DNA of 64,000 nt from an uncultured Brevundimonas sp. (GCF_937870815.1 NZ_CALMZS010000116.1:3416-67415); one strand, 5' to 3'; counted from the stretch's first letter, positions 6,901-37,723 are shown. Numbers and translations are program-made. Notes: generated by a model from the sequence alone, not told the origin.

Positions 6901-7002
6901 AGACGACGCGGCGGAGCCGCGGCAATTTCCGGCCTCGGTAGCGAGGCGTGATCCGCGCCGGCCGGAAATCGGATTGCGCGGGAAGATCATTTCGGATAGT
7001 CA

Positions 7003-7018: not shown

Positions 7019-7100
7019 CCCCCTCGTCACGTGGGATGGCGGCGAAACAAAAATGGACGTGCGGCTCAAGGCCCGCGCCGGGGAACAACAGGGGGTATCC

Positions 7101-9932: not shown

Positions 9933-10032
9933 TCGCAGGCGCGCCCAACGCGCCGGGTTCAGAAACGCCGGGATCGGACCTTTCCGGCTGATCCCGGCGG
10001 CTGCCCTTTCCTGTAAGTCGTCGAGTACACGT

Positions 10033-11967: not shown

Positions 11968-11990
11968 GCCACTCAAGCCGGGCGAACGTC

Positions 11991-14503: not shown

Positions 14504-14700
14504 TAGGGGTCACGGTCCCTCGAATCGCAAGATAGAGGGCTAAGAGGGAAGCCGGTGCGGCGCAAGCCAAGGCCGGAGCTGCCCCCGCAACTGTAAGCGG
14601 CGAGCCGAAGTCCATCGGATGTCACTGGAGCCGCAAGGTCCTGGGAAGGCTGGACAGAAGCTGCGACCCGCGAGCCAGGAGACCTGCCGCGACAACCGAA
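14500..14700 (+). promoter_or_regulatory. Cobalamin (B12) riboswitch
   Basis: The conserved core is read directly: AGAGGGAAGCCGGTGCGGCGCAAGCC, GCTGCCCCCGCAACTGTAAGCGG, CACTGG...GGGAAGGC and the B12 box GAGCCAGGAGACCTGCC (14672-14688). It is followed by a possible hairpin TCGGCCG-GCC-CGGCCGA plus GCGGTTTG (14741-14765). The ATG at 14814 follows. Confidence 0.8.
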
Positions 14701-14813
14701 ATGTCCCCGGGCGGGGTGTCCCGGCGGTCGTCTGCGGCAATCGGCCGGCCCGGCCGAGCGGTTTGCCTGCATGCGTCTGCCCCGGCCTCGCCCCAACCCA
14801 AACGGGGTGCCCG

Positions 14814-16859: not shown

Positions 16860-16872
16860 AGAGGAGGCTCAC

Positions 16873-17049
16873 ATGACCGAACACATCGCCACCGACGAGA
16901 TCACGCTCCGCGACGACGAGCGCCAGCCCTGCGAGGTCTGGACGCGCGTGATGGGCTATCATCGGCCGGTGTCCTCCTTCAATCTCGGCAAGAAGGGCGA
17001 GCACAATGAACGACGGTTCTTCAGTGAAGCGCGCGCCGCGCTCAGCTGA
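16873..17049 (+). CDS. 58-aa stand-alone NrdD C-terminal glycyl-radical domain
   Basis: Strong SD GAGGAGG (16861-16867), then the ATG at 16873. The product is MTEHIATDEITLRDDERQPCEVWTRVMGYHRPVSSFNLGKKGEHNERRFF. It matches the NrdD C-terminal glycyl-radical signature (RV.GY.RPV..(W/F)N.GK..E...R). It is hidden in the track inside a longer out-of-frame ORF (16390..17049). Confidence 0.7.
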   Translation: MTEHIATDEITLRDDERQPCEVWTRVMGYHRPVSSFNLGKKGEHNERRFFSEARAALS

Positions 17050-17656
17050 GCTGCGTGTCGGCGGGCTGGCGCGGCTGTCCACTTGCGACTGGCCGGGCGA
17101 GCTGGTGGCCACGGTGTTCTGCCAGGGTTGCCCGTGGTCGTGCGGCTATTGCCATAACCCGGACCTGATCCCGCCGGACGCCGAGCGGCGGATCGGGTGG
17201 CCCGATGTCCTGTCCTTCCTCGACAGCCGCCGGGGCCTGCTCGACGGCGTCGTGTTCTCGGGCGGCGAACCGACCTTGCAGGCGGCGCTGCCGGAGGCGA
17301 TGCGCGCGGTGCGTGCGCTCGGCTTCCGCGTCGGGCTGCATACCGCTGGGCCGTATCCCGCGCGGCTCGCTGAGGTGCTGACGCTGGTCGATTGGATCGG
17401 CTTCGACGTCAAGGCCGCATTCGACGACTACGAGCGCATCACCAGTGTCGCCGGCAGCGGCGCCAAGGCCAGGGCGGGCCTCGTGCAGGTTCTTGCAAGC
17501 GGCGTCGCCTGCGATATCCGCACGACGGTTCATGACGTCTTGCTCGACCGCGCCGCCCTGGCCCGGCTGGCGTCGGACCTCGCCGCGCTCGGCGTCCGCG
17601 ACCATCGCCTCCAGCCGTTCCGCGAGGTCGGGCGCGCAATGGCCGCAGAGCCATAA
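17006..17656 (+). CDS. nrdG: Anaerobic RNR activating enzyme (radical SAM)
   Basis: LSTCDWPGELVATVFCQGCPWSCGYCHNPDL carries the CxxxCxxC cluster, followed by VVFSGGEPTLQ. The start is uncertain (ATG 17006 or GTG 17024). Either one overlaps the 58-aa ORF. Confidence 0.85.
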   Translation: MNDGSSVKRAPRSAELRVGGLARLSTCDWPGELVATVFCQGCPWSCGYCHNPDLIPPDAERRIGWPDVLSFLDSRRGLLDGVVFSGGEPTLQAALPEAMRAVRALGFRVGLHTAGPYPARLAEVLTLVDWIGFDVKAAFDDYERITSVAGSGAKARAGLVQVLASGVACDIRTTVHDVLLDRAALARLASDLAALGVRDHRLQPFREVGRAMAAEP

Positions 17657-21416: not shown

Positions 21417-22721
21417 CTATTGCGTTTCGGCTCTTGTCTCACGCGCCGAGCCATCCCCGCGGCCACGCAAGAACAGGACGGCCGCACCGGTCACCAGCAC
21501 GAGGCCGGCCAGGCTGGTGGCGTAGGCGGCTCCGACGAAGAAGGGCAGCCAGGCCAGATCGACGGCGGCGAAGTTGCGGACCAGCAGCAGGATGACGCTG
21601 CCCAGATATCCCGACGCGTCCGCGACATAGATCAGGAAACCGGCGGTCGCGACGGTGCCGGAATAGGCGATCATCCGGTCGAACAGCATGGCGTTGAAGG
21701 GCGTGTAGGCCAGGTAAAGGCCCGCGCCGCCGGCGATCATCCAGGCGATCGGCGACAGCAGGCCGTGCTGGAAGGCCAGGGTCGAGGCGCCCAGGATGGC
21801 GAAGCCGGCCAGGATCACCCCGTGCATCAGCAACAGGGCCCGGCCGTTGTTCTTCACCGCGATCAGCACGCCCATCGCCACCAGCGACAGCGCCGCCACC
21901 GGGCCTTCGCTGGCGGTGAACACCGATGCGGCGTCGCCGTAGCCGAGCGCCTGCCAGATCTCGGCGGCGAAATTGTCGCGCAGGTCGCGGAACGCCGTCA
22001 GCATCACATAGGCGGCGACCAGAAGCACCAGCACTGGCCAGTGCGCGGCCAGAAAGGCGGCGCGTTCCCTGGCCATCATCGGCCGGCGCGCCACGCGCTC
22101 GGCCTCGTCCGCGGCGCTGGGCGGGGGCAGGGCGGCGAGCGCCAGGACGGAGATGGCCAGCAGCGGCATGAAGATCAGGCCGACCGCCGCCGGCATCCAG
22201 AAGGCGCTGACGTCGAAGCCGTCCATCAACGTCTTGCCGACCGACTTCACCACGCCGGACGACAGGATGAAGCTGGCGCACAGGATCGAGCCCAGCACCT
22301 CGCTGGTGCGCCGTCCCTCCATGAAGCCGAACACCAGCCCCCAGATCAGACCCAGCGGCAGGCCGTTGAGGAACAGGGCCGCCACGTTCCAGGGCGCGGG
22401 GACGACCGCGAACAGGACCAGGGCGATCCATGAGGCGCCGATCAGCAGCACTATGGCGCCCGCCCGTCGCTCGGGCCGCATCTCCGCGATGATCTTGACG
22501 CCGATCAGCTTGGACAGGGCGTAGCCGGCGACCTGGGCGATCACGAGCGCGATCTTGTAGTCCAGCGCGAAGTCCCAGCCGGGAACCAGGTCGAAGGTCG
22601 CGGCGGTGAACGGCTTGCGGAAGGCGTACATCGAGAAGTACGCGCAAAACCCGGCGAGACCGGCGAAAAGGACGAAGACCACGGGGTTGGCCCGCGCCAG
22701 CCAGGGCCGCAGCCGGTTCAT
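21417..22721 (-). CDS. Polytopic membrane transporter-like protein (DUF5690-like, MFS-related)
   Basis: 434 aa with about 12 TM segments. The N-terminal block CAYFSMYAFRKPFTAATF...DYKIALVIAQVAGYALSKLIGVKIIAEM matches my memory of a family that recurs beside phosphonatase genes. Confidence 0.7.
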   Translation of the reverse strand: MNRLRPWLARANPVVFVLFAGLAGFCAYFSMYAFRKPFTAATFDLVPGWDFALDYKIALVIAQVAGYALSKLIGVKIIAEMRPERRAGAIVLLIGASWIALVLFAVVPAPWNVAALFLNGLPLGLIWGLVFGFMEGRRTSEVLGSILCASFILSSGVVKSVGKTLMDGFDVSAFWMPAAVGLIFMPLLAISVLALAALPPPSAADEAERVARRPMMARERAAFLAAHWPVLVLLVAAYVMLTAFRDLRDNFAAEIWQALGYGDAASVFTASEGPVAALSLVAMGVLIAVKNNGRALLLMHGVILAGFAILGASTLAFQHGLLSPIAWMIAGGAGLYLAYTPFNAMLFDRMIAYSGTVATAGFLIYVADASGYLGSVILLLVRNFAAVDLAWLPFFVGAAYATSLAGLVLVTGAAVLFLRGRGDGSARETRAETQ

Positions 22722-22749
22722 TGCTTGACATGGTCTCGTTGCATGGATG

Positions 22750-22761
22750 TGGTCTAGACCA
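22750..22761. promoter_or_regulatory. Candidate HutC/GntR operator, perfect palindrome TGGTCTAGACCA
   Basis: Read directly. It lies in the 56-bp divergent spacer between the transporter start (22721) and the PLC-like start (22778). It is identical to the core of DasR/NagR-type HutC-family operators (from memory). Confidence 0.55.
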
Positions 22762-22777
22762 ATGCTGCGACGGGTGA

Positions 22778-23974
22778 ATGACGGAGATGGGGCGCATGCG
22801 GTGGGCGGCGGCGATGCTGGGGATGACCAGCCTGGGCATGGCGCAGGCCCCGTGCGACCTCACAGCGGCTTCGCCGGACCGTGCGCGCGCGTCGTGCCAG
22901 CGGGCCTGGATGGACGCCAATCTGAAGCTGAACGACCTGCTCATGGTCGGCACGCACAACAGCTACAAGGAGGCGATGCCGGCATCGCTGATGGCCCTGC
23001 TGAGGCAGGCGGACCCGGGCCGGGCGGACGGCCTGGATTATAGCCATCAGCCGCTCAGCCGGCAGCTGGACGACGGCGCCCGCCAGCTGGAGATCGACGT
23101 CTATTATGATCCCGAGGGCGGGCGTTTTCTCAATCCGGCCGGTCTCGCCGTCGCGGGCCTGACGCTCGATCCGGTGCGACGAGCCGCGCTCGCTGAGCCG
23201 GGCTTCAAGGTGATGCACGTCCAGGACGTCGATGTGTTCAGCGTCTGCGTGCTGCTGGCCGATTGTCTGGGCGTCATCCGGCGCTGGTCCCTGGCCCACC
23301 CGGACCATGCGCCGCTGCTGCTGATGTTCAACGCCAAGACCGATGCCTCGCCGCTGCCGCGGGGAACGTCGGCCTTGCCGTTCGACGCCGCCGCCTGGGA
23401 CGCGCTGGATCGGGAGGTGCAAAACGTGTTTCCCGCCGACGCGCTCATTACGCCCGACGACGTGCAAGGGGACCATCCGACGTTGCGCGAGGCTGTCCTG
23501 GCCGGCGCCTGGCCGACGCTGGGTCAGGCCCGCGGGAAGGTGCTGTTCGCCCTCGATGAGGGCGAGGAGAAGGCCGCCGCCTATCGCGGCGCGCGGCGAT
23601 CGCTGGAAGGGAGAATCTTCTTCATCAATACCGACGAGGCCTCGCCGGCCGCCGCCTATCTCACGCTCAATGACCCCGTCTCCGACGGCTCGCGCATCCG
23701 GGCGGCGGTTCAGGCCGGCTTCATCGTCCGCACCCGAGCCGACGCGGACACGGCGGAGGCGCGCGCCAACGACGTCCGGCGCCGCGACGCGGCCCTGGCC
23801 TCCGGCGCGCAATATGTCTCGACCGACTATATGCGGCCGGACGCGCGGTTCGCCGGAGGATACCAGGCGCGGCTGCCGGGCCATGCGGCGGCGCTGTGCA
23901 ACCCGGTGCGCGCGGCAGGCCGGTGCGGCGAAGCCGAGATTGAGCGGATCGCATCGGCTCGACCTGTGAACTGA
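22778..23974 (+). CDS. Secreted PI-PLC-like (Ca-dependent phospholipase C / phosphodiesterase X-domain) protein
   Basis: Signal peptide (AAMLGMTSLGMAQAP). Catalytic-domain start LNDLLMVGTHNSYKEAM...DYSHQPLSRQLDDGARQLEIDVYYDPEGGRF. C-terminal SGAQYVSTDY. Confidence 0.75.
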   Translation: MTEMGRMRWAAAMLGMTSLGMAQAPCDLTAASPDRARASCQRAWMDANLKLNDLLMVGTHNSYKEAMPASLMALLRQADPGRADGLDYSHQPLSRQLDDGARQLEIDVYYDPEGGRFLNPAGLAVAGLTLDPVRRAALAEPGFKVMHVQDVDVFSVCVLLADCLGVIRRWSLAHPDHAPLLLMFNAKTDASPLPRGTSALPFDAAAWDALDREVQNVFPADALITPDDVQGDHPTLREAVLAGAWPTLGQARGKVLFALDEGEEKAAAYRGARRSLEGRIFFINTDEASPAAAYLTLNDPVSDGSRIRAAVQAGFIVRTRADADTAEARANDVRRRDAALASGAQYVSTDYMRPDARFAGGYQARLPGHAAALCNPVRAAGRCGEAEIERIASARPVN

Positions 23975-23977
23975 CGC

Positions 23978-25111
23978 ATGGGCATGCGCTACGACATCGC
24001 GGTGGTGGGGGCGGGCATCGTCGGCCTGGCCTGCGCCCTGGCCGCCGCCCGCCGGGGCCTGTCGGTCGTCGTGATCGACCGCGACGCCCAGGCGAACGGC
24101 GCCTCGATCCACAATTTCGGCTTCGTCACCGTCACCGGCCAGCCGCGCGGCCTGGTCTGGCGCCGGGCGTGCCGCAGCCGCGCCGTCTGGGATGAAATCG
24201 CCGCCGAGGCGGGCATCCCGATTCTGCAACGCGGCCTTTGGCTGCCGGTCCGGCGCCCCGAGGCCGTGGCGGTGCTGGACGCCTTCATGGCGACCGAAAT
24301 GGGCGAGGGGTGTCGCCTGTTGTCGGCGGACGAGGCGCGCGCACGGGCGCCGGAGGTGACCGGTCCCGAAACCGCCGCGACCCTCTGGAGCCCGCATGAC
24401 CTGCGCGTGGATTCGCGCACGGCGATCCCGCGCCTGGCGGCGTGGCTGGCCGATCGATTCGGCGTCGTCTTTCTGCGCCAGACCGCCGTCCATGCGGTCG
24501 AACCGCCGCGCATCGTCACCGCCCAGGGCGTGGTCGAGGCCGAGGCGGCGGTGGTCTGTCCCGGCGACGACTTCGTCAGCCTGTTCCCGGACCGGCTGGC
24601 CGAGGCCGGGCTGGTGCGCTGCAAGCTGCAGATGCTTCGGTTGGCTTCGCCCGGCTTCGTCCTGCCGGCGCCGCTGATGTCGGACCTGGGCCTCGTCCGT
24701 TACGGCGGTTACGCCGACCTGCCCGAAGCGGCCGCCCTGCGCGCGCGGCTGGAGGCGGAGCAGGGCGACGCCCTCGCCAACGGCGTCCATCTGATCGCCG
24801 TGCAGGACGCCGACGGCGCCCTGGTGGTGGGCGACAGCCATCACGATGCCGCCACACCGGACCAGTTCGCCAGCGAGGCGGTTGACCGGCTGATCCTGGA
24901 CGAGTGGCGCGCCGCCACCGGGCGTCCGGCGCCGCCGGTGCTGCAGCGCTGGACCGGAACCTATGCGCGCGGCCCCAACGCCGGTCTGATCGAGGCGCCG
25001 CATCCGCGCGTGCGTCTTGCGCTCGTCACCGCCGGCAACGGCGCCTCCACCGGCTTCGCCTTCGGCGAGGAGGTGATCGCACACCTGTTCGAGGAGATTT
25101 CCGAACCATGA
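23978..25111 (+). CDS. FAD-dependent amine oxidoreductase (TIGR03364-like clade linked to phosphonate catabolism)
   Basis: The dinucleotide fold YDIAVVGAGIVGLACALAAARRG..V.VIDR indicates a DAO-type family. The stop overlaps the phnX ATG (ATGA at 25108-25111). Confidence 0.8.
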   Translation: MGMRYDIAVVGAGIVGLACALAAARRGLSVVVIDRDAQANGASIHNFGFVTVTGQPRGLVWRRACRSRAVWDEIAAEAGIPILQRGLWLPVRRPEAVAVLDAFMATEMGEGCRLLSADEARARAPEVTGPETAATLWSPHDLRVDSRTAIPRLAAWLADRFGVVFLRQTAVHAVEPPRIVTAQGVVEAEAAVVCPGDDFVSLFPDRLAEAGLVRCKLQMLRLASPGFVLPAPLMSDLGLVRYGGYADLPEAAALRARLEAEQGDALANGVHLIAVQDADGALVVGDSHHDAATPDQFASEAVDRLILDEWRAATGRPAPPVLQRWTGTYARGPNAGLIEAPHPRVRLALVTAGNGASTGFAFGEEVIAHLFEEISEP

Positions 25112-25911
25112 CCTCCATCCGCGACTGCTTCGACATGGTCGTCTTCGACTGGGCCGGCACCACGGTGGATTTCGGCAGCCGCGCGCCGGTGCTGGCGCTG
25201 ATCGAGGCCTTCGCCGCCCTCGGCGTGACGGTCGCTGAAGAGGAGGCGCGCCGCGACATGGGGCGCGCCAAGGCCGACCATGTCCGCGCCATGTTCGAAC
25301 AGCCCCGGATCGCACGGGCCTGGCGGGGCGCGAACGGCGCTGCGGCGGATCAGGCGGCGGTCGGACGGGTGATGGCTGAGCTCCAGGCTCCGATGGTCCG
25401 GCTGGCCGGGGAGACCGCAGACCTGATCCCCGGCGCCGCCGCCGCCACGGCCCGCTTGCGCGAGCAGGGCCTGAAGATCGCCTCCTGCACCGGCTACACG
25501 CGCGAGATGATGCAGACGATCCTGCCGCGCGCCGCCGAACAGGGCTATGCGCCCGACCTGGTTGTCTGCGCGCACGAGACGCCGCAGGGACGGCCTTCGC
25601 CGCTGATGATCTACAAGGCCAGCGCCGAGCTCGGCGTCTGGCCGCTCACGCGCGTGGTCAAGGTCGACGACGCCGAGGTCGGGATCGCCGAGGGCCGCAA
25701 TGCGGGCTGTTTCACGGTGGGCGTGGCCGCGTCGGGCAATATGGCGGGCCTGACGGCGCCGGCGCTGGCCGACCTGAGCGCCGACGAACGCGCCGCCTTG
25801 CTGGACGCGGCCGCCGACCGGTTGCGCGCCGCCGGCGCCGACCTGGTCATCGACACGGTCGCCGATCTCGTTCCGGCGCTGGAAGCCGAGGCGGCCCGTC
25901 GTGGCGGATAG
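25108..25911 (+). CDS. phnX: Phosphonoacetaldehyde hydrolase (phosphonatase)
   Basis: VVFDWAGTTVDFG (HAD motif I), EEEARRDMGRAKADHVRAM (Schiff-base Lys context), PRIARAW, CTGYTREMM, GRPSPLMIYK and VDDAEVGIAEGRNAGCFTVGV. These are co-linear with canonical PhnX as I remember it. Confidence 0.85.
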   Translation: MTSIRDCFDMVVFDWAGTTVDFGSRAPVLALIEAFAALGVTVAEEEARRDMGRAKADHVRAMFEQPRIARAWRGANGAAADQAAVGRVMAELQAPMVRLAGETADLIPGAAAATARLREQGLKIASCTGYTREMMQTILPRAAEQGYAPDLVVCAHETPQGRPSPLMIYKASAELGVWPLTRVVKVDDAEVGIAEGRNAGCFTVGVAASGNMAGLTAPALADLSADERAALLDAAADRLRAAGADLVIDTVADLVPALEAEAARRGG

Positions 25912-25926
25912 GGTCGGGGCCGACCT

Positions 25927-26544
25927 CTAGGCGGTTGTCCGAGAGACCGGGGCCGCCGCCCGGCTTTGCGCGGCGAGCGCGATCAGCAGGTCGCGGTAGT
26001 CGGCCAGCGGCGCGATCGCGGCGCCCTCGACCTTCCCCAGTTCGTCGTAGCGGCGCAGCCTCACGGCGGCTTCGAAACCGGGCGACGCGCTGAAGGCGTC
26101 GGCCTCCGCCTCGCTCATCGGTCCGCCCTGCAGCTCAAGGCTCTGGCTGGAGGCGGAGCTCAGGGTTTCGAGATACCCCGGTTCACGCGTCGCCAGATAG
26201 CGCTTGGCTTGCACGTGCAGGCGAACCGGCTCTACGACCTGCGGGCCGAAGCCCTGCGCCAGCCAGGCCGCGCCGATCCGCTCGTGAAAGGCGTCGACGC
26301 CACGATCGGCCGCGTCCTCGCCCTGCTTTTGCAGCAGGTGGCCGATGTCGTGCAGCAGGGCCGCGGCCACCAGCGCGTCGGAATCTCCGGCGCAGCGCGC
26401 GTGGTGGGCGCATTGCAGCGCGTGCTCCAACTGCGTCACGGCCTCGCCATAGCGGGCGCCGCCGAGCTGATCGAAGAGGGCGAAGATCGAACAGACGAAG
26501 CCTTCGGCCGAGTGCGGTCGCGTCATAGAGAATCCAGGCGGCAA
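25927..26544 (-). CDS. HD-domain protein of the PhnZ-like (phosphonate-operon HD oxygenase) type
   Basis: TQLEHALQCAHHA...AALLHDIGHLL...HERIGAAWL...VRLHVQAKRYL supplies the His/Asp ligands typical of HD diiron oxygenases. The start is 26544 or 26526. Confidence 0.7.
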   Translation of the reverse strand: MPPGFSMTRPHSAEGFVCSIFALFDQLGGARYGEAVTQLEHALQCAHHARCAGDSDALVAAALLHDIGHLLQKQGEDAADRGVDAFHERIGAAWLAQGFGPQVVEPVRLHVQAKRYLATREPGYLETLSSASSQSLELQGGPMSEAEADAFSASPGFEAAVRLRRYDELGKVEGAAIAPLADYRDLLIALAAQSRAAAPVSRTTA

Positions 26545-26547
26545 AGA

Positions 26548-26559
26548 TGGACTATACCA
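26548..26559. promoter_or_regulatory. Candidate HutC/GntR operator TGGACTATACCA (10/12 match to the 22750 site)
   Basis: Read directly. It lies immediately upstream of the PhnZ-like gene start. Confidence 0.4.
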
Positions 26560-26629
26560 GATTCGCCGCGTGCCGTTAAAGGCCTGTTTGATCGTCGGAT
26601 CGCTGGGATCGACCCGCGGGGTTGGACGT

Positions 26630-28303
26630 CTAACGCGCGGTCAGCAGGTTGGGGTCGATGAACTGGCGCGGGATGCCTGGGCCTTCGAAATAGGCGCCCA
26701 GCCACGAGCCGCCGCCGCCATTGAAATATTCGACGCGGATGGCGTGCTTGCCGGGCTGCAGATCGATGCTGCCGGCGGCGGTGATCACCCCGTGGTCGCC
26801 GTCGTTGTCCACGACCGTCTTGCCGTCGATGTACAGAATGCTGCCGTCGTCAGAGGCCAGCGAGAAGCCGTACGAGCCGGCGGCGGCGATGGTGATGTAG
26901 CCCTCGAAGACCACGGCGACCGCGTCTTCGCGCGGCAGTGTCAGCCCGTCGATGCTCAGCTCATGCGCTCGTCCCGTCGCCGCCGGCGCCAGGCGCGAGA
27001 AGTCGGGAAGCCGCACCGGGCCTTCCGGCAGCAGATAGACGCTGTAGGTCACGCCGCGCGGGCCGGCGCTCTCGTCCAGAATGCGAAAATAGCCGGTGGC
27101 TGGAACGCTGGCGGCGAGGCCGTCCACGAACAGGCCGGCGCGCACGATGGTGCTGCGGCTGATCTGGACCGGGCCGGCGTACAGCGGCGACGCGGCGGTG
27201 GGGATGGAGTTGTCCAACGTGTAGCGGACCTCGCCGGCTGCGTTGGGATTGCGAATGGTCATCCGCGCCGGCTGGCCGAGGAACAGCCCGCCCGAAGGTG
27301 CATTGCCGTCGCCCACGGGTTCGATGACCGGCGAGGCGTAGAAGCTGCTGGTCCGGTAGGTCTGCACCGGCGCCGGCTCGCCTGCCAGGGCAGGCCGAAC
27401 CGGACGGCCCAGCCAGGCATAGGGGATGTCCGCGCCCAGCAGCCAGGCCACGGTCGCGGGGGTGTCGAAGGTGTTGATCGGCAGGTCGAGCTCCACGCCC
27501 CGGTTGACGCCGTCGCCATAGGCGATCCACGGGATCTCCAGTTCGGCCGGCGTCTCCCCGCCATGCCCCTTGCCCACGCCGCCATGGTCGGAGGTCACCA
27601 GGATCACCGTATCGTCGGCGATGCCGGCCTCGACGGTGGCCTGCCGGATGCGGGCGATCAGGGTGTCGGCCTTGGCCACCGCCTCGTAATACTGTGGCGT
27701 GCCATGCCCGTATTCGTGCCCGGCGTGGTCGACATGATCGAAATGGACGAACAGGAAGGCAGGCCGTTTGGCCTTGATATAGCTCTCCGCCAGGGCGGTG
27801 GTTTCGTCCTCGCTCTCGCCGTGGACGTCATAGTCCACGAACCGTTGGTCATAGAGGTTGCCGAACCCCTCCCAATGATAGACCGAACCCACTTCCCACT
27901 CCGGATGCTGGTCCGTCAGGATCTGGAAGATGGACGGGAAGAAGCCGCCGGAGCCGGTGACCGAGGTGGGGAAGTTGAACTCGCCCACCTGCCAGTCATT
28001 GCTGGTCACGCCGTGCTGTTCCGGTCCGGCGCCGTCCAGGATGGAGGCCCAGTTGGCGCCGCTGGTGGTCGGCATCACGGCCCGCGCGTGCAGGCTCCAG
28101 CTGCCGTTCGCCATCAAGTCGTCCAAGGTCGGCGTGGCGGCGCGCCTCACGCCGTCGGGGCTCAGGCCGTCGACGCCGATGACGATGACGTGGCCGGCCG
28201 TCTGGGCGGCGCTGGGGGACGAGACGCCCAGGCCCGCCATGGCGGCGAGGAAGGCCAAGAGCAGCGCGGCGCCCTTGATCGACTGGTTCATGACACGCTC
28301 CAC
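26630..28303 (-). CDS. Secreted nucleotide pyrophosphatase/phosphodiesterase (alkaline-phosphatase superfamily) fused to a C-terminal PA14-like domain
   Basis: Signal peptide (GAALLLAFLAAMAGLGVSSPSAAQ). NPP core VIVIGVDGLSPD...MPTTSGANWASI (nucleophile Thr context)...FVHFDHVDHAGHEYGHG...VTSDHGG. The C-terminal segment SDDGSILYIDGKTVVDNDGDHG...RVEYFNGGGGSWL is typical of PA14. Confidence 0.8.
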   Translation of the reverse strand: MERVMNQSIKGAALLLAFLAAMAGLGVSSPSAAQTAGHVIVIGVDGLSPDGVRRAATPTLDDLMANGSWSLHARAVMPTTSGANWASILDGAGPEQHGVTSNDWQVGEFNFPTSVTGSGGFFPSIFQILTDQHPEWEVGSVYHWEGFGNLYDQRFVDYDVHGESEDETTALAESYIKAKRPAFLFVHFDHVDHAGHEYGHGTPQYYEAVAKADTLIARIRQATVEAGIADDTVILVTSDHGGVGKGHGGETPAELEIPWIAYGDGVNRGVELDLPINTFDTPATVAWLLGADIPYAWLGRPVRPALAGEPAPVQTYRTSSFYASPVIEPVGDGNAPSGGLFLGQPARMTIRNPNAAGEVRYTLDNSIPTAASPLYAGPVQISRSTIVRAGLFVDGLAASVPATGYFRILDESAGPRGVTYSVYLLPEGPVRLPDFSRLAPAATGRAHELSIDGLTLPREDAVAVVFEGYITIAAAGSYGFSLASDDGSILYIDGKTVVDNDGDHGVITAAGSIDLQPGKHAIRVEYFNGGGGSWLGAYFEGPGIPRQFIDPNLLTAR

Positions 28304-28346
28304 GAGGAGAAAAGTTCGACCAGCCGCACGACACGGCCGGCAGTCC

Positions 28347-28358
28347 TGGTATGTACCA
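28347..28358. promoter_or_regulatory. Candidate HutC/GntR operator TGGTATGTACCA (inverted TGGTA/TACCA arms)
   Basis: Read directly. It lies in the divergent spacer between the NPP-PA14 gene (start 28303) and the GntR gene (start 28474). An extra TGGTA half-site lies at 28362-28366. Confidence 0.4.
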
Positions 28359-28473
28359 ATGTGGTAAGCCGCGGTTGGCGACGCTTTCGTGAAAAGCGGT
28401 TGGCGGTTGCGTGGCGCCTTGACGTCGAACTGTCGAGGCCGGATCGAAGACGTGGTTCAACCCCAGGATTCGA

Positions 28474-29211
28474 ATGGCGAACGCCGTCTCAGCCCCGAAG
28501 TCCGAAGGCCTGCACTATCTGGGCATGCGCGACGACATCGCGGCGCGCATCGCCGCGGGCGATCTGAAGCCTGGCGACAAGCTGCCGTCCGAGCGGCGCC
28601 TGCAGGACGAGGTCGGCGTCGCGCGCGGCACCGTTCGCGCGGGCCTGTTCCAGCTGGAGGCCGAGGGGGTGATCTATCGCCGCGACCGCAGCGGCTGGTA
28701 CGTCTCGCCTCCGCCCGTCATCTATGACCCGACCCGCTGGGAAGGCTTCATGTCCTATGTCGAGGCGCAGGGGCGCAATCCGACGACGGAGACGATTTCG
28801 GCCGAGCCCATTATCGCCGACCCGCTGCTGGCTCAGGTCTTCTCGCGGCCGCCGGGCGCGCCGCTCTTCATGATCCGCCGCCGCCGCTACGTGGACGGCC
28901 GGGCCGTGCTGGTCGAGCGGATCGTCGTCGACGCCGCCCTCACGCCTCACCTGTTGCGCTTTTCCTTCGACCAGTCGCTGACCGACATCCTGAAAAGCGA
29001 GTACGGCATTTCCGTCTCCCGCAACCAGGTCAGCATGCAGCCCTGCGCCCTGACCGGCCAGGAGGCCGAGGCGCTGCGGGTGAAATCCGGCCTGCCCGGC
29101 CTGGCCGTCCAGCGCATCAGCTACGACGCGCAAGGCCGCGTCGTGGAGTTCGACCACGAGTACTGGCGTCACGACGCGGTGCGGATCAGCGTCGACACGC
29201 GCGTCCGTTAG
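28474..29211 (+). CDS. GntR-family (HutC/PhnF subfamily, UTRA domain) transcriptional regulator
   Basis: The winged HTH is GDKLPSERRLQDEVGVARGTVRAGLFQLEAEGVIYRRDRSGWYV. It is followed by a UTRA-like C-terminal domain. Confidence 0.85.
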   Translation: MANAVSAPKSEGLHYLGMRDDIAARIAAGDLKPGDKLPSERRLQDEVGVARGTVRAGLFQLEAEGVIYRRDRSGWYVSPPPVIYDPTRWEGFMSYVEAQGRNPTTETISAEPIIADPLLAQVFSRPPGAPLFMIRRRRYVDGRAVLVERIVVDAALTPHLLRFSFDQSLTDILKSEYGISVSRNQVSMQPCALTGQEAEALRVKSGLPGLAVQRISYDAQGRVVEFDHEYWRHDAVRISVDTRVR

Positions 29212-29447
29212 GTCAGGCGAAGCGGCCCCGGGCCGCCGCCGGCGGGATCCGACCAGGATGTCCGGCCCATCTCGATGTGGCCCGCCGCGCGCCACGTCTG
29301 GCCGCCCGTCTCGAACTGTCGATCATACCAGCCGTGGCTGTCCGCCGGCTCCAGCGGCAGGACTATGGCAGGCGTGAAGACCGCGGCCGCGCCGACCGAG
29401 GCCATCATCGCGGTGATGAAGCCGCGGGGGTTCTGGATCGTCGCCAT
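29208..29447 (-). CDS. Hypothetical 79-aa protein with hydrophobic, Tat-like N-terminus
   Basis: Strong third-position GC bias in my hand translation. N-terminus MATIQNPRGFITAMMASVGAAAVFTPA. It lies downstream of and co-oriented with the DeoR gene. No family recognised. Confidence 0.4.
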   Translation of the reverse strand: MATIQNPRGFITAMMASVGAAAVFTPAIVLPLEPADSHGWYDRQFETGGQTWRAAGHIEMGRTSWSDPAGGGPGPLRLT

Positions 29448-29498
29448 GGCATGCTCCCCGCCGGGTCCCGACGGCGCGCCGTCAGGACCCTGTCTGGA

Positions 29499-30311
29499 CT
29501 AGACCACAGAGACATTGCTTCCATGAGGTTCGCCACCCGGCTCCGGAGCGATGTGAACGCGCGTGTTCCACTCCGCGGCGACGCGCTGGACATCCGCCGG
29601 CGGCTCCCGGTCCGTCACCAGTTCCTGGACGTCCGCGAACGCCGCGACCTGGATGAAGCCGGACCGGGCGAATTTCGAGTGGTCCGCGAGGACGACGATG
29701 TTGCGGGCCTGTTCCAACAGGGTCTGCTTGAAGGCCGCCTCGTCGGCGTCGAAGTCGAGAAAGCCCCGCTCCGCGTCCACGGCGCCCATCGACAGGATCG
29801 TCAGGTCCGGCGCGAAGCGGCGGCAGAAAGCTTTGGCCTCCGCGCCGAAGGCGGCGTGATAGTCCGCGTTGACCGGGCCGCCGGCCAGCAGCAGACGCTG
29901 TCCCGGATTGCCCAGAACTTCGTAGGCGATCTCGACGCTGTTGGTCACGATCGTCAGGTTCCGCACATGGGACAGGCTGCGGGCCAGCCAGTGGCAGGTC
30001 GTGCCCGCGTCCAGCAACAGCGTCATGCCCTCGCTGACCAGCGCGGCGGCCGTCTGGGCGATGCGCTGCTTGGCCTCGGCATTCTCGCGCAGGCGCAGCC
30101 GATAGGGCGCCTCGATCTTGTTGCTGGTGACCGAAAGACCGCCGTGCACCTTCTGGACGACGCCGCTCTGGCCCAGCTGCCTGGCGTCGCGGCGGATGGT
30201 CTCCTCGGACACCTCGAAGCGGTCCGCCAACTCCGACACGGTCCAGAAGGTCTTCTCTTCAAGGAGTTGGATGATCGCCGCCAAGCGTGCGCCCTGGGTC
30301 AACTGCTTCAT
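29499..30311 (-). CDS. DeoR-family transcriptional regulator
   Basis: HTH MKQLTQGARLAAIIQLLEEKTFWTVSELADRFEVSEETIRRDARQL plus a DeoR C-terminal sugar-phosphate sensor domain. Start at MKQL (30311); the ORF track gives 30344. Confidence 0.85.
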   Translation of the reverse strand: MKQLTQGARLAAIIQLLEEKTFWTVSELADRFEVSEETIRRDARQLGQSGVVQKVHGGLSVTSNKIEAPYRLRLRENAEAKQRIAQTAAALVSEGMTLLLDAGTTCHWLARSLSHVRNLTIVTNSVEIAYEVLGNPGQRLLLAGGPVNADYHAAFGAEAKAFCRRFAPDLTILSMGAVDAERGFLDFDADEAAFKQTLLEQARNIVVLADHSKFARSGFIQVAAFADVQELVTDREPPADVQRVAAEWNTRVHIAPEPGGEPHGSNVSVV

Positions 30312-30589
30312 GGGCGCGTGATTCACCCGATTCTGAACGTCCATCCGGCTTCAATCTCACACGATGCCACGCATTTCAACGCGGCTTGGACGCTAACCCC
30401 GGCGAAAATGCCCTCAAAGACAGGGAAACTCACAAAAACCCACACGTTTCAACATAAATCCCTCAAAACGTCACAGGGCTGCAATCCACCGAGCCTATTG
30501 GACCCCTGTCTCGGCTGTGCGGCCCCGGTCCCAAGCCGATGGTCCGCGCGAACGAGCGAATTGGTCCAGACCAGATGTGGGGCACACAC

Positions 30590-33376
30590 ATGTTCAAGCG
30601 CATTTCCGATCGGGCCGCGCGCCCGAGTCTCAAGACCGTGCTTTTGGCCACCGCATCCGCGGTCGTCATCAGCACCACGACGGCTCCCGCCTTCGCGCAG
30701 GACGCCGTCGACAGCGAACTCGACGAAGTCATTGTCACCGGCTTCCGCCGTTCGCTCGGCGACGCGCGCGACATCAAGCAGGACTCGGTCATCGCGGTGG
30801 ACGCCATCGTCGCCGAGGACATGGCCAAATTTCCGGACCTCAACCTGGCGGAATCGCTGCAGCGTCTGCCGGGCGTGCAGATCACCCGTGAGGCCGGCGA
30901 GGGCCGCCGCATTTCGCTGCGCGGCCTGGGCGCCGACTTCAGCCGCGTTCAGCTGAACGGGATGGAGGTTCTGGGCAATGTCGACTCCGCCCAGGACAGC
31001 CGCGGCCAGCGCTCGCGTGACCGCGCCTTCGACTTCAACATCTTCGCCTCTGAACTGTTCTCGCGCGTCGAGGTCGAAAAGACCTTCCAGGCGTCGCAGA
31101 AAGAAGGCGGCATGGCCGGCACGGTCGGCCTGTTCACCGGTCGCCCCTTCGACACCGGTCCCGGCTTCCGCGGCGCCATGACGGCCAAGGTCGGCACCAA
31201 CGAATACACCGACGACGCCCAGCCGCGCGTCGCCGCCCTGCTCAGCCAGAACTGGGACAATGTCTTCGGCGTCTCCTTCTCGGCCGCCTACAGCCGCCGC
31301 CGGACGACCGAGCAGGGCCACAACACCTATAATTACACGCAAGCCGGCGCGGATCGCCTGCAGAGGATGGTCGACGACGGCCTGGACATCTCGAACCTGA
31401 CCGCGGCCCAACAGGCGAAATTCCTGTCCGGCGACCTGTATTTCGCCGACGGCAACCGCATCTCGTCCTGGAACGCCGAGCAGGAGCGCCTGGGCCTGAC
31501 CGGTGCAATGCAATGGCGGCCGACCGCGAACATGGAGCTGACGCTCGACGTGCTGCACGGCGAGTTCACCACCGAGCGGGACGAGCTGCATCTGGCCACG
31601 CGCCCGCTGAACGCGGCCGGTTCGATCGCCTTCGACGCCGCCGCGGGCGCCCCTTGGCCGGCGATGTTCCGGACGGCGTCGGTCATCAATGACATCGCGT
31701 GGGACGCCAACGACTACGTCACCATGACGGACGTGACCGGCACGACCTTCGGCAGCGAAAACCGCCGGTCGCGCAACGAGAACGAATTCAACCAGATCGT
31801 GCTGACCGGCAAATGGGACCTGACCGATCGCCTGACGATCGACGGTCACATCGGTTACGAGAAGTCGACCTATGAGACCCCCTATGACGACAAGCTGTAC
31901 ATGCGCGCCAAGGGCAACCTGATCGCCAACTATGGCGCGGACGGCCGCTCGGCGACCTTCGAATACCCGGGCTTCGACGCCACCGACCCGGCCAACTACG
32001 CGATGGACTCGTTCTACTACCGCGGCTTCCACAATGAATCGGAACTGCACGAGGGCGAGTTGAACGCGCGGTTCGAACTGAACGACACCTGGACCCTCAG
32101 CGCCGGCCTCGCCTATCACAAGTTCCGTCAGGACGGCGTCGACACCTTCTACGACGACAACGTCAACGGCACGCGCAGCAAGACGCGCGGCACCTCGGTC
32201 GCCGACATCGCCGACGTCTTCACCAACGAGTTCGGCTCCTGGCTGATCGGCAACTACGACCGGGCCTTCGAGAAGTACGGCGAGTACCACCGCTTCGGCC
32301 CCAACGCCGACGGCACGGGCGGCGCGCTGCAGGACATCGAGAACGTCTTCGAGACCACCGAAGAGACGATCTCCGGCTTTGTCCAGGCGGACTGGGACAG
32401 CGAGCTGATGGGCCGCCGCTTCCGCGGCAACATCGGCCTGCGCGGCTACACGACCGATACCCGCAGCGTCGGCTGGATCCAGGGCGACAGCTATGCCTAC
32501 CTGGGCACGTCCGACGTCGAGGGCAGCTATGACGGCGTCCTCCCGGCGTTGAACACGGTGCTGGAAGTGGCCCCTGACATCCTGCTCCGTTTCTCGGCCA
32601 CGCAGAACCTGAACCGACCGGGTCTCGGCTCGATGGCGGCCGAAGGCAGCGCCTTCCAGAATGAGGACTCCGGCGAGATCACCGCCTCGCGCGGCAATCC
32701 GAATCTGGAGCCCTACAAGGTCAACGCCTATGATCTGGGTCTGGAATACTACTTCGGCGACGTCGGCCTGGTCGCGGTCAACCTCTTCCAGAAGGACATC
32801 ACCAACTACATCGGGTCGATCCTGCTGGAGAACGTGCCGTTCAGCGAGACAGGCGTTCCGTCCGGCGCCATCCCCGGGGCCACGGAAAGCACGATCGTCA
32901 GCGAGTTCACGATGCCCATCAACATCGAGGGCACGAACACGCTGACAGGCCTGGAGCTGACGGTTCAGGCGCAGCTGACCTTCCTGCCGGCGCCGTTCGA
33001 CGGCTTCGGCGTGACGGCCAACTACACCAAGGTGGACGCCGACCAGGACCTGACCGGCTTCTCGCCCGAGAGCTACAACGCCACCGTCTACTACGAGACG
33101 AGCCGGTGGGGCGCCCGCGCCTCCATGAGCCACCGCGACACCTGGTTCAGCGGCTACAGCGATAATCCGATGAGCGCCGGCACGCGGGGCTTCGAAGCCT
33201 CGACCTACGTCGACGCCGCCGCCTTCTTCAACATCACCGACGACCTCCAGCTCACCCTGGACGCCGTCAACCTGACCAACGAGAAGGACACTCAGTTCTG
33301 GGGTCGAAACCAGTATCTCTACAATCAGAACCAGAGCGGAACGACCTACATGGGCGGTGTCAGCTACAAGTTCTGA
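30590..33376 (+). CDS. TonB-dependent outer-membrane receptor
   Basis: Signal peptide ...TTAPAFAQD. TonB box/plug sequence LDEVIVTGFRRSLGDARDIKQDSVIAVDAIVAEDMAKFPDLNLAESLQRLPGVQI. The C-terminus ends ...YMGGVSYKF. Confidence 0.9.
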   Translation: MFKRISDRAARPSLKTVLLATASAVVISTTTAPAFAQDAVDSELDEVIVTGFRRSLGDARDIKQDSVIAVDAIVAEDMAKFPDLNLAESLQRLPGVQITREAGEGRRISLRGLGADFSRVQLNGMEVLGNVDSAQDSRGQRSRDRAFDFNIFASELFSRVEVEKTFQASQKEGGMAGTVGLFTGRPFDTGPGFRGAMTAKVGTNEYTDDAQPRVAALLSQNWDNVFGVSFSAAYSRRRTTEQGHNTYNYTQAGADRLQRMVDDGLDISNLTAAQQAKFLSGDLYFADGNRISSWNAEQERLGLTGAMQWRPTANMELTLDVLHGEFTTERDELHLATRPLNAAGSIAFDAAAGAPWPAMFRTASVINDIAWDANDYVTMTDVTGTTFGSENRRSRNENEFNQIVLTGKWDLTDRLTIDGHIGYEKSTYETPYDDKLYMRAKGNLIANYGADGRSATFEYPGFDATDPANYAMDSFYYRGFHNESELHEGELNARFELNDTWTLSAGLAYHKFRQDGVDTFYDDNVNGTRSKTRGTSVADIADVFTNEFGSWLIGNYDRAFEKYGEYHRFGPNADGTGGALQDIENVFETTEETISGFVQADWDSELMGRRFRGNIGLRGYTTDTRSVGWIQGDSYAYLGTSDVEGSYDGVLPALNTVLEVAPDILLRFSATQNLNRPGLGSMAAEGSAFQNEDSGEITASRGNPNLEPYKVNAYDLGLEYYFGDVGLVAVNLFQKDITNYIGSILLENVPFSETGVPSGAIPGATESTIVSEFTMPINIEGTNTLTGLELTVQAQLTFLPAPFDGFGVTANYTKVDADQDLTGFSPESYNATVYYETSRWGARASMSHRDTWFSGYSDNPMSAGTRGFEASTYVDAAAFFNITDDLQLTLDAVNLTNEKDTQFWGRNQYLYNQNQSGTTYMGGVSYKF

Positions 33377-33399
33377 CACGATCGCCGGCCTAGACTGGG

Positions 33400-33423
33400 C
33401 GCCCCTCCTCACCGGGAGGGGCG
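33400..33423 (+). terminator. Stem-loop after the TBDR gene (possible attenuating terminator)
   Basis: CGCCCCTCC-TCACCG-GGAGGGGCG gives a 9-bp GC stem, followed by TCTCGTT. The T tract is weak. Confidence 0.4.
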
Positions 33424-33445
33424 TCTCGTTCCCGTATTCAGAGCC

Positions 33446-34084
33446 ATGATCGTTTCCCACCGCCACCAGTTCATCTTCGCCGCCGTGCCCAAGACCGGCA
33501 CCCACGCCGTGCGACAGGCCCTGCGCGAGCAACTCGGGGACGAGGACGTCGAACAGGTGGGTCTGTTCGTCGACAAGCGTTTCCCGTGGCAGGACCTGGC
33601 CGCCATCCGGCACGGCCACCTGTCACTGAGGCAGGTGCGCCCGCACCTCGGCGAGGCGGCCTTCGGCGGCTATTTCAAGTTCGCGTTCGTGCGCAATCCG
33701 TTCGACCGCTTCGTCTCGTACTGCGCCTTCATGCTGCGTGGCGGCGACATGTTCGAGCGCCAGCCGCGCGAGGTGATGCGCAACTTCCTGTTTGAGCAGC
33801 CGCCCGAGCAGCACATCCTGTTCCAGCCGCAGGCGTCCCTTCTGGTGGACGGGGATGGCGAGACGCTGCTGACGGATGTCGTGGGCCGCGTCGAGGACAT
33901 GCAGGGCTCGTACGACGCGATCTGCGCGCGCATCGGCATTCCCTCCCGGCCGCTGGACCGGGTCAACGGCACCAGGCGCGGCGATTATCGCCGCTACTAC
34001 GACCCGGCCCTGGTCGATGCCGTCGCCGCGCGCTACGCTCAGGATCTGATCCTGTTCGGCTACAGCTTCGAAGGCTCGCGATGA
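33446..34084 (+). CDS. Sulfotransferase (Sulfotransfer_2-like, carbohydrate-type)
   Basis: 5'-PSB loop FAAVPKTGTHAV and 3'-PB motif FVRNPFDRFVSY. C-terminal YDPALVDAVAARYAQDLILFGYSF. No signal peptide. Confidence 0.8.
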   Translation: MIVSHRHQFIFAAVPKTGTHAVRQALREQLGDEDVEQVGLFVDKRFPWQDLAAIRHGHLSLRQVRPHLGEAAFGGYFKFAFVRNPFDRFVSYCAFMLRGGDMFERQPREVMRNFLFEQPPEQHILFQPQASLLVDGDGETLLTDVVGRVEDMQGSYDAICARIGIPSRPLDRVNGTRRGDYRRYYDPALVDAVAARYAQDLILFGYSFEGSR

Positions 34085-34704
34085 GCGACGTCGAGCTGAC
34101 CCCCAATCCGCGCAAGACCACCCGCGTCCGCGCCCTGGGGCCAGTCGATATCGGCGCCTTGCAAGCGGCCGTGCGGGCGATCCCGGAGGCCGTCTGGGAC
34201 GCTGAAAACGCCGGCAAACCCAACAAGCTCGACGTGCTGGACGCCACGCGCCACATCGTCTTGCGTTTCATAGACAGCGGCCGTGACTGGCGCGCATCGC
34301 ACGACCGCCCGGCCTGGCCGGAATGGCGCGCCCTGCTGGAGCCGGTGATGGCCCAGGCCGTGGTTGGTTACGACTACGCACGCGGCGTGTTCCCCCGGGT
34401 GATGTTCGCCAGGATGCGGCCGGGCGGCGTGATCCATCCGCACATCGACGCCAATCCAGCGGCGAAGTGGCCGCACAAGATCCACGTGCCGCTGTCGACC
34501 AACCCCGGCGTGGTGTCCTTCTTCGGGGGCGCGGAGCATCATTTCCCGCCAGGCGAGGCGGTCGAGGTCAACAACCTGGGCCCGCACTGGGTGCGTAACC
34601 ATGGCGACACCGACCGCATCCACCTGATCTTCGAATATTACGACGCCGACCAGCCCGACCCGGCCTGGCTGGCGCCCTTCCTGCTGACGGGCGCCGCGCG
34701 GTGA
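34081..34704 (+). CDS. Aspartyl/asparaginyl beta-hydroxylase-family 2OG/Fe(II) oxygenase
   Basis: GGVIHPHIDANPAAKWPHKIHVPLSTNPGV...GEAVEVNNLGPHWVRNHGDTDRIHLIFEY. The ATG overlaps the upstream stop (ATGA). Confidence 0.8.
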   Translation: MSDVELTPNPRKTTRVRALGPVDIGALQAAVRAIPEAVWDAENAGKPNKLDVLDATRHIVLRFIDSGRDWRASHDRPAWPEWRALLEPVMAQAVVGYDYARGVFPRVMFARMRPGGVIHPHIDANPAAKWPHKIHVPLSTNPGVVSFFGGAEHHFPPGEAVEVNNLGPHWVRNHGDTDRIHLIFEYYDADQPDPAWLAPFLLTGAAR

Positions 34705-35813: not shown

Positions 35814-35818
35814 AGCCG

Positions 35819-36625: not shown

Positions 36626-36628
36626 TCG

Positions 36629-37582: not shown

Positions 37583-37723
37583 TCCGATCACCAGACGGCC
37601 GGCGCGGGGCGGCCGCCCAAACTGTCACGCTCGGGATGTAGTCCGCACATCGACGACGCGACCTCGCCCCGGCGCAAGGTCGTGGTCGGCGCCCGACACC
37701 CTTCAGGCCTGGAGCCGCACACC

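Follow-up and report, generated by a model that had tools for sequence, protein, structure and literature searches.

A Brevundimonas aminophosphonate utilisation island that may couple secreted phosphodiesterases to import and intracellular C-P bond cleavage

FAD amine oxidases of the TIGR03364 type are PbfD enzymes (Zangelmi 2023, PMC10590968). In the available text of that study, oxidation of 2-aminoethylphosphonate (AEP) and N-methyl-AEP to phosphonoacetaldehyde is established for PbfD1 and PbfD2, trimethyl-AEP is reported not to be oxidised, and a PbfD-PhnX route that dispenses with the transaminase PhnW is demonstrated in vitro; the AEP- and N-methyl-AEP-oxidising PbfD2 comes from Mariniblastus fucicola, an organism without PhnW. 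Here we describe a variant of this published pathway in a 64,000-nt stretch of DNA (the window; G+C content about 70%) from an uncultured Brevundimonas sp. (GCF_937870815.1, NZ_CALMZS010000116.1:3416-67415). The source genome comprises 3.04 Mb and is 97% complete, and the nearest public relatives of the window's proteins are from Brevundimonas. The genes in question form an island of about 17.5 kb (21417-38878) in which, as in M. fucicola, a TIGR03364-type oxidase gene lies beside phnX with no phnW, and the same chemistry is expected. Unlike the M. fucicola pair, this one stands in an operon behind a gene for a secreted PI-PLC-C1-like enzyme (hereafter PLC) and in a regulon with a TonB-dependent receptor block, an HD-domain oxygenase, a DUF5690 membrane protein and an NPP-PA14 phosphodiesterase. 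The available text of PMC10590968 makes no mention of phospholipases or phosphodiesterases, and transporters occur in it only in a cited title.

Several other described systems resemble parts of the island. The Salmonella PhnR regulon (phnR, phnSTUV, phnWX) likewise places a HutC-type GntR regulator beside AEP catabolic and uptake genes; however, the regulator of the island stays below the cut-off for PhnR, a TonB-dependent receptor and DUF5690 replace the ATP-binding cassette (ABC) uptake system PhnSTUV, PbfD is found instead of PhnW, and the regulon includes secreted hydrolases. With the PhnY*/PhnZ and TmpA/TmpB pairs the island shares an HD oxygenase of the same di-iron family, with ligand motifs and the Tyr/Glu loop retained, whereas here no PhyH- or TmpA-type partner adjoins the gene and the protein remains under the equivalog cut-offs. 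The carbohydrate utilisation (CUT) loci of Xanthomonas and Caulobacter, and systems resembling polysaccharide utilisation loci (PUL), combine one or more secreted hydrolases, an outer-membrane receptor, an inner-membrane carrier, cytoplasmic catabolism and a local repressor. As a background comparison, the overall logic of the island is the same, but its predicted target is organophosphorus and not carbohydrate, and its receptor is followed by sulfotransferase-like and AspH-like enzymes. The secreted enzymes belong to the same Pfam families as the Ca2+-dependent PI-PLC1 of Streptomyces antibioticus (3h4w/3h4x) and the Xanthomonas NPP (2gsn), although the similarity is distant (E 4e-10 and 2e-11, respectively) and the NPP of the island has extra CHB_HEX_C_1 and PA14 domains. 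The searchable literature, outside which subscription papers lie, yielded no link of secreted diesterases or TonB receptors with AEP catabolism, no description of this regulon or of a bacterial release step for lipid-bound phosphonates, and nothing relevant that connects PhnR with TonB or that deals with DUF5690, in phosphonate uptake or otherwise.

A preliminary description of this DNA had listed seven genes between 21417 and 29211 as an aminophosphonate cluster, and all seven are indeed present there, with Pfam or NCBIfam profile matches to the families it predicted. They do not form a single operon: the HD and NPP genes are on the minus strand, and the set of seven needs at least four promoter regions (a divergent one between DUF5690 and PLC-pbfD-phnX, one for HD, and a divergent one between NPP and phnR). 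This cluster is the left half of the island. The right half consists of a DeoR-family regulator, the TonB-dependent receptor, four cytoplasmic enzymes and a secreted PhoA-type phosphatase; the preliminary description had missed the receptor block, the most constant partner of the catabolic genes. What is new here is the larger island, its common operator, the constancy of the receptor block and the exchangeable nature of the secreted phosphodiesterase. Our proposal, which in our judgement stands at about an even chance, is an aminophosphonate utilisation island that joins hydrolysis outside the cell, import, and C-P bond cleavage inside.

The common regulation of the island is indicated by a 12-bp HutC-type palindrome, similar to TGGTCTAGACCA, that occurs at five places and precedes DUF5690, the PLC-pbfD-phnX operon, the HD gene, NPP/phnR and the TonB-dependent receptor operon. 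Many of these candidate operators recur in related loci, including those of the PLC clade, defined as the 13 other loci and genomes with more than 67% identity to the PLC of the window among the 80 best PI-PLC-C1 homologue loci. The perfect palindrome TGGTCTAGACCA (operator 1, 22750-22761) lies in the 56 bp that separate the divergent DUF5690 and PLC genes, and the same site is found upstream of PLC or DUF5690 in L002-L005, L009, L010, L013, L014, L016, L112 and L114. Operator 2, TGGACTATACCA (26548-26559), is immediately 5' of the HD gene; the identical sequence recurs before HD in L002, between the divergent HD and PlcN genes of L003, and before PlcN in L005. Operator 3, TGGTATGTACCA (28347-28358), is located in the divergent NPP/phnR region and has an equivalent in the B. 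intermedia locus L112, and operator 5, TGGTCCAGACCA (30562-30573), directly precedes the likely receptor start (30575 or 30590), an equivalent being present upstream of the receptor gene in 12 of the 13 PLC-clade loci (all but L009). A further operator-like site, TGGACTAGACCA (site 4, 29495-29506), is at the 3' end of the DeoR gene and overlaps its stop codon. It sits in a convergent gap in which no promoter is expected and where Brevundimonas sp. DC300-4 has a PlcN-type gene; the site may be a relic.

A degenerate pattern built from three of the island sites has eight matches in the 3.04-Mb genome, five of them in the island (the three defining sites and two more) and all of these at the beginning or end of a gene. 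Since three island sites went into the pattern, independent support comes from the two additional matches only. The three matches outside the island fall within unrelated coding regions, one of them rpoB-like, and were treated as chance. At up to two mismatches from the consensus, the window contains nine matches against 0.74 expected, a number reached in none of 100 shuffles. Across 13 related loci from Brevundimonas, Sphingomonas, Sphingobium, Novosphingobium, Altererythrobacter and a member of the Rhizobiales, the motif stands before PLC, receptor, HD, DUF5690, NPP and PlcN-type genes, compared with a background rate of 0.46 per 10 kb in 66 unrelated loci. In B. intermedia and Caulobacter sp. 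602-1 the motif is likewise present at the equivalent promoters.

The proposed repressor acting at these sites is encoded within the island (28474-29211, plus strand) as a HutC-subfamily GntR regulator with GntR and UTRA domains. Its best NCBIfam model is PhnR (TIGR03337), with 258.5 bits, under the cut-off of 296.75; the equivalog score is thus not reached, while palindromic sites, as candidate operators, do lie before phosphonate uptake and catabolic genes as would be expected for PhnR. A PhnR-like gene is present in seven of the 13 PLC-clade loci and in several Caulobacteraceae loci. Taken with the distribution of the palindrome, this PhnR-like protein appears to repress the island through TGGTCTAGACCA-type operators. 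A search for the Pho box (two 7-bp repeats with an 11-bp period), using the Escherichia coli consensus, which may not be that of this genus, gave no match in the window with fewer than three mismatches in 14, and the weak candidates at island promoters are no better than the window background.

The PLC gene (22778-23974, plus strand) encodes a PI-PLC-C1-family secreted phosphodiesterase that matches PF16670 (397 bits, E 6e-119) over the full length of the domain (profile positions 1-329 of 329), has a Sec-type signal peptide ending in AQA and, in the match to Streptomyces PI-PLC1 3h4w, aligns over about 100 residues. Since its stop codon is only 3 bp before the start of pbfD, PLC, pbfD and phnX constitute one operon. 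PbfD (23978-25111, plus strand) is a FAD amine oxidase that covers TIGR03364 profile positions 1-365 of 365 and scores 399.5 bits against a cut-off of 285.1, an equivalog-level assignment from which conversion of AEP and N-methyl-AEP to phosphonoacetaldehyde is predicted. The phosphonoacetaldehyde hydrolase PhnX (25108-25911, plus strand; TIGR01422, 324.4 bits, cut-off 220) contains the HAD motif I FDWAGTTVD and the Schiff-base lysine region MGRAKADH, and the 4-bp ATGA overlap between its start and the stop of the oxidase gene, seen already in the preliminary description, was confirmed. That the oxidase takes the place of PhnW, as was proposed there, is supported by the identity of TIGR03364 with PbfD and by the lack of a PhnW gene in the 97%-complete genome (best profile match 43.9 bits, cut-off 400.8), although this replacement has already been published.

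PAP2 (class-A acid phosphatase) domains are fused to, or encoded directly downstream of, PI-PLC-C1 homologues at 25 of the 80 loci, an arrangement that spans many Sphingomonadales, Caulobacter and Brevundimonas genomes and was confirmed as a fusion at L003:9995-11884; our literature search found no paper describing such a diesterase-monoesterase fusion. The PLC of the window is without the PAP2 domain of many of its homologues. Loss of PAP2, together with the position directly before pbfD, fits, without proving, a shift of this enzyme to phosphonate head groups.

The association of these genes extends to other genomes. Wherever the contig is long enough, the clade PLC gene is found no more than about 5 kb upstream of an orthologue of the receptor block, with receptors of 57-90% identity. 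Within 10 kb of the 13 PLC-clade loci there are PhnR-like genes in seven cases, HD in five, NPP in five, PlcN-type enzymes in eight and pbfD-phnX-DUF5690 in three. At the level of whole genomes, the pbfD-phnX pair is present in all 13, usually followed by DUF5690 (12 pairs score above the cut-off and one is truncated by a contig end), and each genome has exactly one full-length HD oxygenase gene. By comparison, among 200 genomes sampled evenly from the class Alphaproteobacteria, PhnX was detected in 16, HD in 35 and the PLC in none, and PhnX occurs in nine of the 36 genomes whose PLC is of a more distant type (53-63% identity; Fisher p = 8.7e-7 versus the PLC clade). In a Caulobacteraceae sample, PhnX was present in 20 of the 21 genomes that have the Sulfotransfer_2 marker of the receptor block and in 58 of the 179 that do not (p = 1.8e-8); here as above the counts ignore shared ancestry, and the p-values overstate independence.

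In ten Caulobacteraceae genomes the marker and PhnX genes are no more than 15 kb apart. All ten co-localised loci contain the receptor block, with receptor orthologues of 69-76% identity in the phosphonate loci of this family, and PbfD-PhnX; HD is present in nine (the remaining one, L120, ends at a contig end) and DUF5690 in eight. Each also encodes a PhnR-like or DeoR-like regulator, except L123, in which neither was found, and seven encode a secreted phosphodiesterase (PlcN-type in three, NPP-PA14 in three, Metallophos-LamG in one). B. intermedia has the island of the window gene for gene, without PLC, and Caulobacter sp. 602-1 has a PlcN-type enzyme in place of PLC. No other partner accompanies PbfD-PhnX, HD and DUF5690 as constantly as the receptor with its four enzymes. 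Judged from gene content, the conserved core comprises the receptor block, PbfD-PhnX, HD, DUF5690 and a local repressor. In Novosphingobium and Sphingomonas (L101:8110-12801, L102, L103, L095) a second, paralogous TonB receptor and/or TPR-sulfotransferase lies directly upstream of pbfD-phnX-DUF5690, and this set is separate from the PLC-receptor locus.

The second secreted enzyme of the island, an NPP-type phosphodiesterase (26630-28303, minus strand; PF01663 with 110.6 bits), has a signal peptide and carries CHB_HEX_C_1 (PF13290) and PA14 (PF07691) domains. It aligns to the Xanthomonas NPP structures 2gsn and 7mw8, with the metal-ligand motifs DGL, HxDxxGH (HFDHVDHAGH) and DHG (SDHG) retained. 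As the counts given above indicate, the phosphodiesterase differs between loci, being PI-PLC-C1-like, NPP-PA14, PlcN-type or Metallophos-LamG, and non-homologous secreted phosphodiesterases fill the same loci in other genera. Comparison of the loci thus presents it as an accessory that can be swapped, with at least four unrelated families supplying it. Because unrelated enzymes of the same general activity have been recruited into one regulon, an extracellular diesterase step probably serves the pathway; the recruitment is good evidence for such a step and none about the bond that is cut.

Among these accessory enzymes, Metallophos (purple-acid-phosphatase-like) proteins with a Laminin_G_3 domain adjoin the pbfD-phnX loci at L096:9289-11271 and L099:1426-3579, with an operator-like site beside their genes, and represent the fourth secreted phosphoesterase family recruited to pbfD-phnX loci. 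In Brevundimonas sp. DC300-4 (L002:16548-18673), a PlcN-type phospholipase C gene, flanked by phnR and the receptor gene, consists of two overlapping open reading frames of 396 and 342 amino acids and is probably a frameshifted pseudogene.

In the right half of the island, the receptor gene (about 30575-33376, plus strand; Plug and TonB_dep_Rec_b-barrel domains) is always followed by genes for four cytoplasmic enzymes (33446-37582), none of which has a signal peptide: a Sulfotransfer_2 protein (33446-34084), an AspH-type 2-oxoglutarate (2OG) oxygenase (34081-34704), a protein with TPR and Sulfotransfer_3 domains (34701-36625) and an AspH/cupin oxygenase (36629-37582), all on the plus strand. 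The TPR-sulfotransferase is split here across two frames (34701-35813 and 35819-36625), whereas all related loci encode a single protein of about 640 amino acids; the split would reflect either a frameshift or an error of the draft assembly. Between the receptor stop and the first sulfotransferase gene there is a strong G+C-rich hairpin, GCCCCTCC...GGAGGGGC (33385-33425), that may act as a partial terminator and so set how much receptor is made relative to the enzymes. The DeoR-family regulator (29499-30344, minus strand; PF00455, PF08220) is encoded divergently from the receptor; it has orthologues at the equivalent place in B. intermedia L112 and in L009 and weaker homologues (42-45%) in L119, L120, L122, L124 and L125. 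Downstream of the receptor operon, a secreted PhoA-type alkaline phosphatase with a signal peptide (37682-38878, plus strand; PF00245) is a candidate member of the regulon.

The inner-membrane step of the pathway is assigned to the DUF5690 polytopic membrane protein (21417-22721, minus strand; PF18943, E 7.5e-154), which we propose as an aminophosphonate importer and which adjoins pbfD-phnX in most related loci. An AlphaFold2 model (predicted local distance difference test, pLDDT, 76; predicted template-modelling score, pTM, 0.78) has the twelve-helix fold of the major facilitator superfamily (MFS), and its top Foldseek matches in the PDB are MFS carriers, with probability 1.00 to the phosphate transporter PiPT, G6PT/SLC37A4, GlpT and GLUT1-5. 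Since phosphate and organophosphate carriers do not outscore sugar carriers, the substrate cannot be read from the fold; the model is consistent with an MFS-fold carrier, and an aminophosphonate substrate is suggested by gene context. AepP is described as a GlpT-like MFS protein (PMC8316502). Identity of DUF5690 with AepP was rejected at the family level, the only Pfam match being DUF5690, though the folds are related.

The HD gene (25927-26544, minus strand, with a likely ATG start codon at 26526) encodes a PhnZ/TmpB-family di-iron oxygenase, which clears the TIGR03276 cut-off by a narrow margin only (221.6 bits, cut-off 214.6). In alignments to PhnZ (4mlm, E 2e-30) and TmpB (6npa, E 1e-29) the di-iron ligand motifs LEH, HDxGH, HE, H and D of 4mlm are conserved, and the Y..GE substrate loop, whose Tyr/Glu pair binds the amino group in PhnZ, is aligned as well. 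The scores against the TmpB and PhnZ1 equivalogs, 157.6 and 154.9 bits, are below the cut-offs of 300 bits. A profile search of the source genome for the PhyH family (PF05721, PhnY*-type) gave no match, and this absence is meaningful because PhyH was recovered in this way from 11 of 14 related genomes. Where the PhyH genes of these relatives share a contig with an HD gene, none is within 100 kb of it, and no TmpA- or PhyH-type partner adjoins the HD gene of the island. The preliminary description had taken the lone PhnZ-like gene as a sign of pre-hydroxylated aminophosphonate substrates. The HD gene does stand in a genome without a PhyH-type partner, but such a substrate is a matter of interpretation and another hydroxylase may serve: the two AspH-type 2OG oxygenases of the same regulon make a non-PhyH hydroxylase possible. 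Lone TIGR03276 genes are common in Alphaproteobacteria, with one in 35 of the 200 genomes of the class sample, and often have unrelated contexts; at eight high-scoring alphaproteobacterial HD genes the neighbours that were identified (amidohydrolases, sarcosine-oxidase subunits, MFS carriers and others) are unrelated to phosphonates and include no PhnY*.

From these data a route can be proposed. The Sec-exported PLC and NPP-PA14 would hydrolyse the phosphodiester-type linkages between head groups and lipids or glycans, with aminophosphonates (AEP, N-methyl-AEP, 1-hydroxy-AEP) and ordinary phosphomonoesters as presumed products. The TonB-dependent receptor would move the freed compound or compounds across the outer membrane, and the DUF5690 carrier, assigned by its modelled fold and a presumed substrate, would provide passage through the inner membrane. 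In the cytoplasm, PbfD, as expected at equivalog level and from published chemistry, would deaminate AEP and N-methyl-AEP oxidatively to phosphonoacetaldehyde, which PhnX would convert to acetaldehyde and phosphate. The HD oxygenase, placed by its family, would cleave 1-hydroxy-aminophosphonates, whether imported in that form or produced by a hydroxylase of a type other than PhnY*. We favour a mixed role, in which the secreted enzymes release the head groups of phospho- and phosphonolipids or glycans, phosphatases take the phosphate esters and the core takes the aminophosphonates. Ordinary phosphate esters are likely substrates of the secreted enzymes too, because relatives of PLC are fused to PAP2 and a PhoA-type gene follows the receptor operon.

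An outside-in pathway had been put forward in the preliminary description, and its coupling is well supported by the operator, the PLC operon, co-occurrence and the swaps of hydrolases; the pattern supports functional coupling of hydrolysis outside with C-P cleavage inside, not the cutting of phosphonate esters. Cleavage of phosphonate esters by either secreted enzyme, which was part of that proposal, is a prediction from family and gene context. Several observations weigh against the proposed route. The PAP2 partnership at 25 of 80 PI-PLC-C1 loci implies a phosphomonoester rather than a phosphonate as a normal product, and the PhoA-type phosphatase follows the receptor operon. PLC itself is evidently dispensable, since it is absent from all 16 other PhnX-positive genomes of the class sample and from the otherwise identical island of B. 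intermedia, and at three of the ten Caulobacteraceae loci no secreted hydrolase was found within 20 kb. Moreover, a TonB receptor is not obviously needed for a solute of 125 Da, the route leaves the two sulfotransferase-like and two AspH-like proteins without a role, and the regulator falls under the PhnR equivalog cut-off.

Some of these points would be accommodated by general organophosphate scavenging, in which PLC, NPP-PA14 and PhoA act only on phosphate esters of phospholipids and nucleic acids, regulation is shared because all of the genes serve phosphorus acquisition, and phosphonates enter as free dissolved AEP. The two-step release of phosphate from a phosphodiester that the PLC-PAP2 fusions imply, the PhoA-, PlcN-type and Metallophos-LamG phosphoesterases in or beside the loci, the known action of the NPP, PI-PLC and PlcN families on phosphate esters and the lack of PLC in most PhnX-positive genomes all agree with such scavenging. 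On the other hand, control apparently runs through a predicted PhnR-like GntR operator and not a Pho box of the E. coli consensus, PLC shares a single operon with pbfD-phnX and has lost its PAP2 domain in the window, and every PLC-clade genome has PbfD-PhnX and HD, as opposed to the 25% of genomes with the paralogous PLC type that have PhnX. We consider this explanation serious but somewhat improbable. The remodelling of the cell's own membrane under phosphorus starvation, with phospholipase-type enzymes recycling its lipids and the phosphonate genes as unrelated neighbours, would have a precedent in the phospholipase-C-type enzymes that take part in lipid remodelling in other Alphaproteobacteria. 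It seems highly improbable here, given that PLC and NPP have Sec signal peptides and NPP a PA14 domain of carbohydrate-binding type, that the loci include an import receptor and a carrier, and that the common operator and the co-occurrence statistics tie PLC and NPP to PbfD-PhnX.

The receptor block can also be read as the key to the substrate. A larger or modified phosphonate conjugate, such as a phosphonoglycan fragment or N,N,N-trimethyl-AEP, might be imported by the receptor and processed by the enzymes linked to it, the AspH-type 2OG oxygenases hydroxylating or demethylating it and so feeding HD as a new functional analogue of PhnY* or TmpA, with AEP and N-methyl-AEP left to PbfD-PhnX. 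Uptake through a receptor suits a larger or scarce substrate, HD and two AspH-type genes occur together in every locus examined, PhyH-type PhnY* is absent from the genome and from the vicinity of HD in relatives, and trimethyl-AEP is not a substrate of PbfD in the available text of PMC10590968; in addition, the paralogous receptor and TPR-sulfotransferase genes of Novosphingobium again flank pbfD-phnX-DUF5690. However, PF05118 enzymes are not tied to phosphonates by sequence, the sulfotransferase-like proteins find no place in the scheme, lone TIGR03276 genes are widespread without AspH neighbours, and HD is far under the TmpB and PhnZ1 equivalog cut-offs, which together make this a decidedly unlikely alternative. 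A related reading, on balance unlikely, is that the receptor and the four enzymes are a hitherto unrecognised aminophosphonate acquisition module, which would import phosphonate conjugates freed by the interchangeable phosphodiesterases, and that one or both AspH-type 2OG oxygenases would hydroxylate or demethylate AEP derivatives and in this way supply a 1-hydroxy substrate to HD.

PhnX has no match in 17 of 18 other sampled genomes of the same GTDB genus and the receptor-block marker is absent from all 18, the flanks differ from those in Brevundimonas sp. DC300-4, and PLC is nearer to sphingomonad sequences (68-72% identity) than to those of other Caulobacterales (at most 63%). Rarity in the genus, differing flanks and a sphingomonad-like PLC together point to an accessory island that moves horizontally. 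Upstream of it, the window contains a separate carbohydrate-utilisation-type locus with a TonB receptor, a GH3 glycosidase and a tryptophan-halogenase-like gene (6948-13496). Genes for a class III ribonucleotide reductase (NrdD with an ATP-cone) and a radical-SAM activase (14619-17656) occupy the space between this receptor locus and that of the island.

Much biogenic phosphonate is bound in lipids and glycans, and its release and uptake by bacteria are essentially undescribed. The locus offers a compact and testable system, with a defined operator, candidate outer- and inner-membrane transporters and exchangeable secreted hydrolases; it supplies a phosphonate context for the set of receptor, sulfotransferase and AspH genes and a candidate function for DUF5690. 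If the acquisition module exists as outlined, it would give a function to the receptor five-gene set and to DUF5690, and the coupling of AspH with HD would be a route of C-P cleavage independent of PhnY* and TmpA. If the proposed release step is true, the phosphorus cycle of soil and freshwater Alphaproteobacteria would gain the first step that its phosphonate branch has so far lacked.

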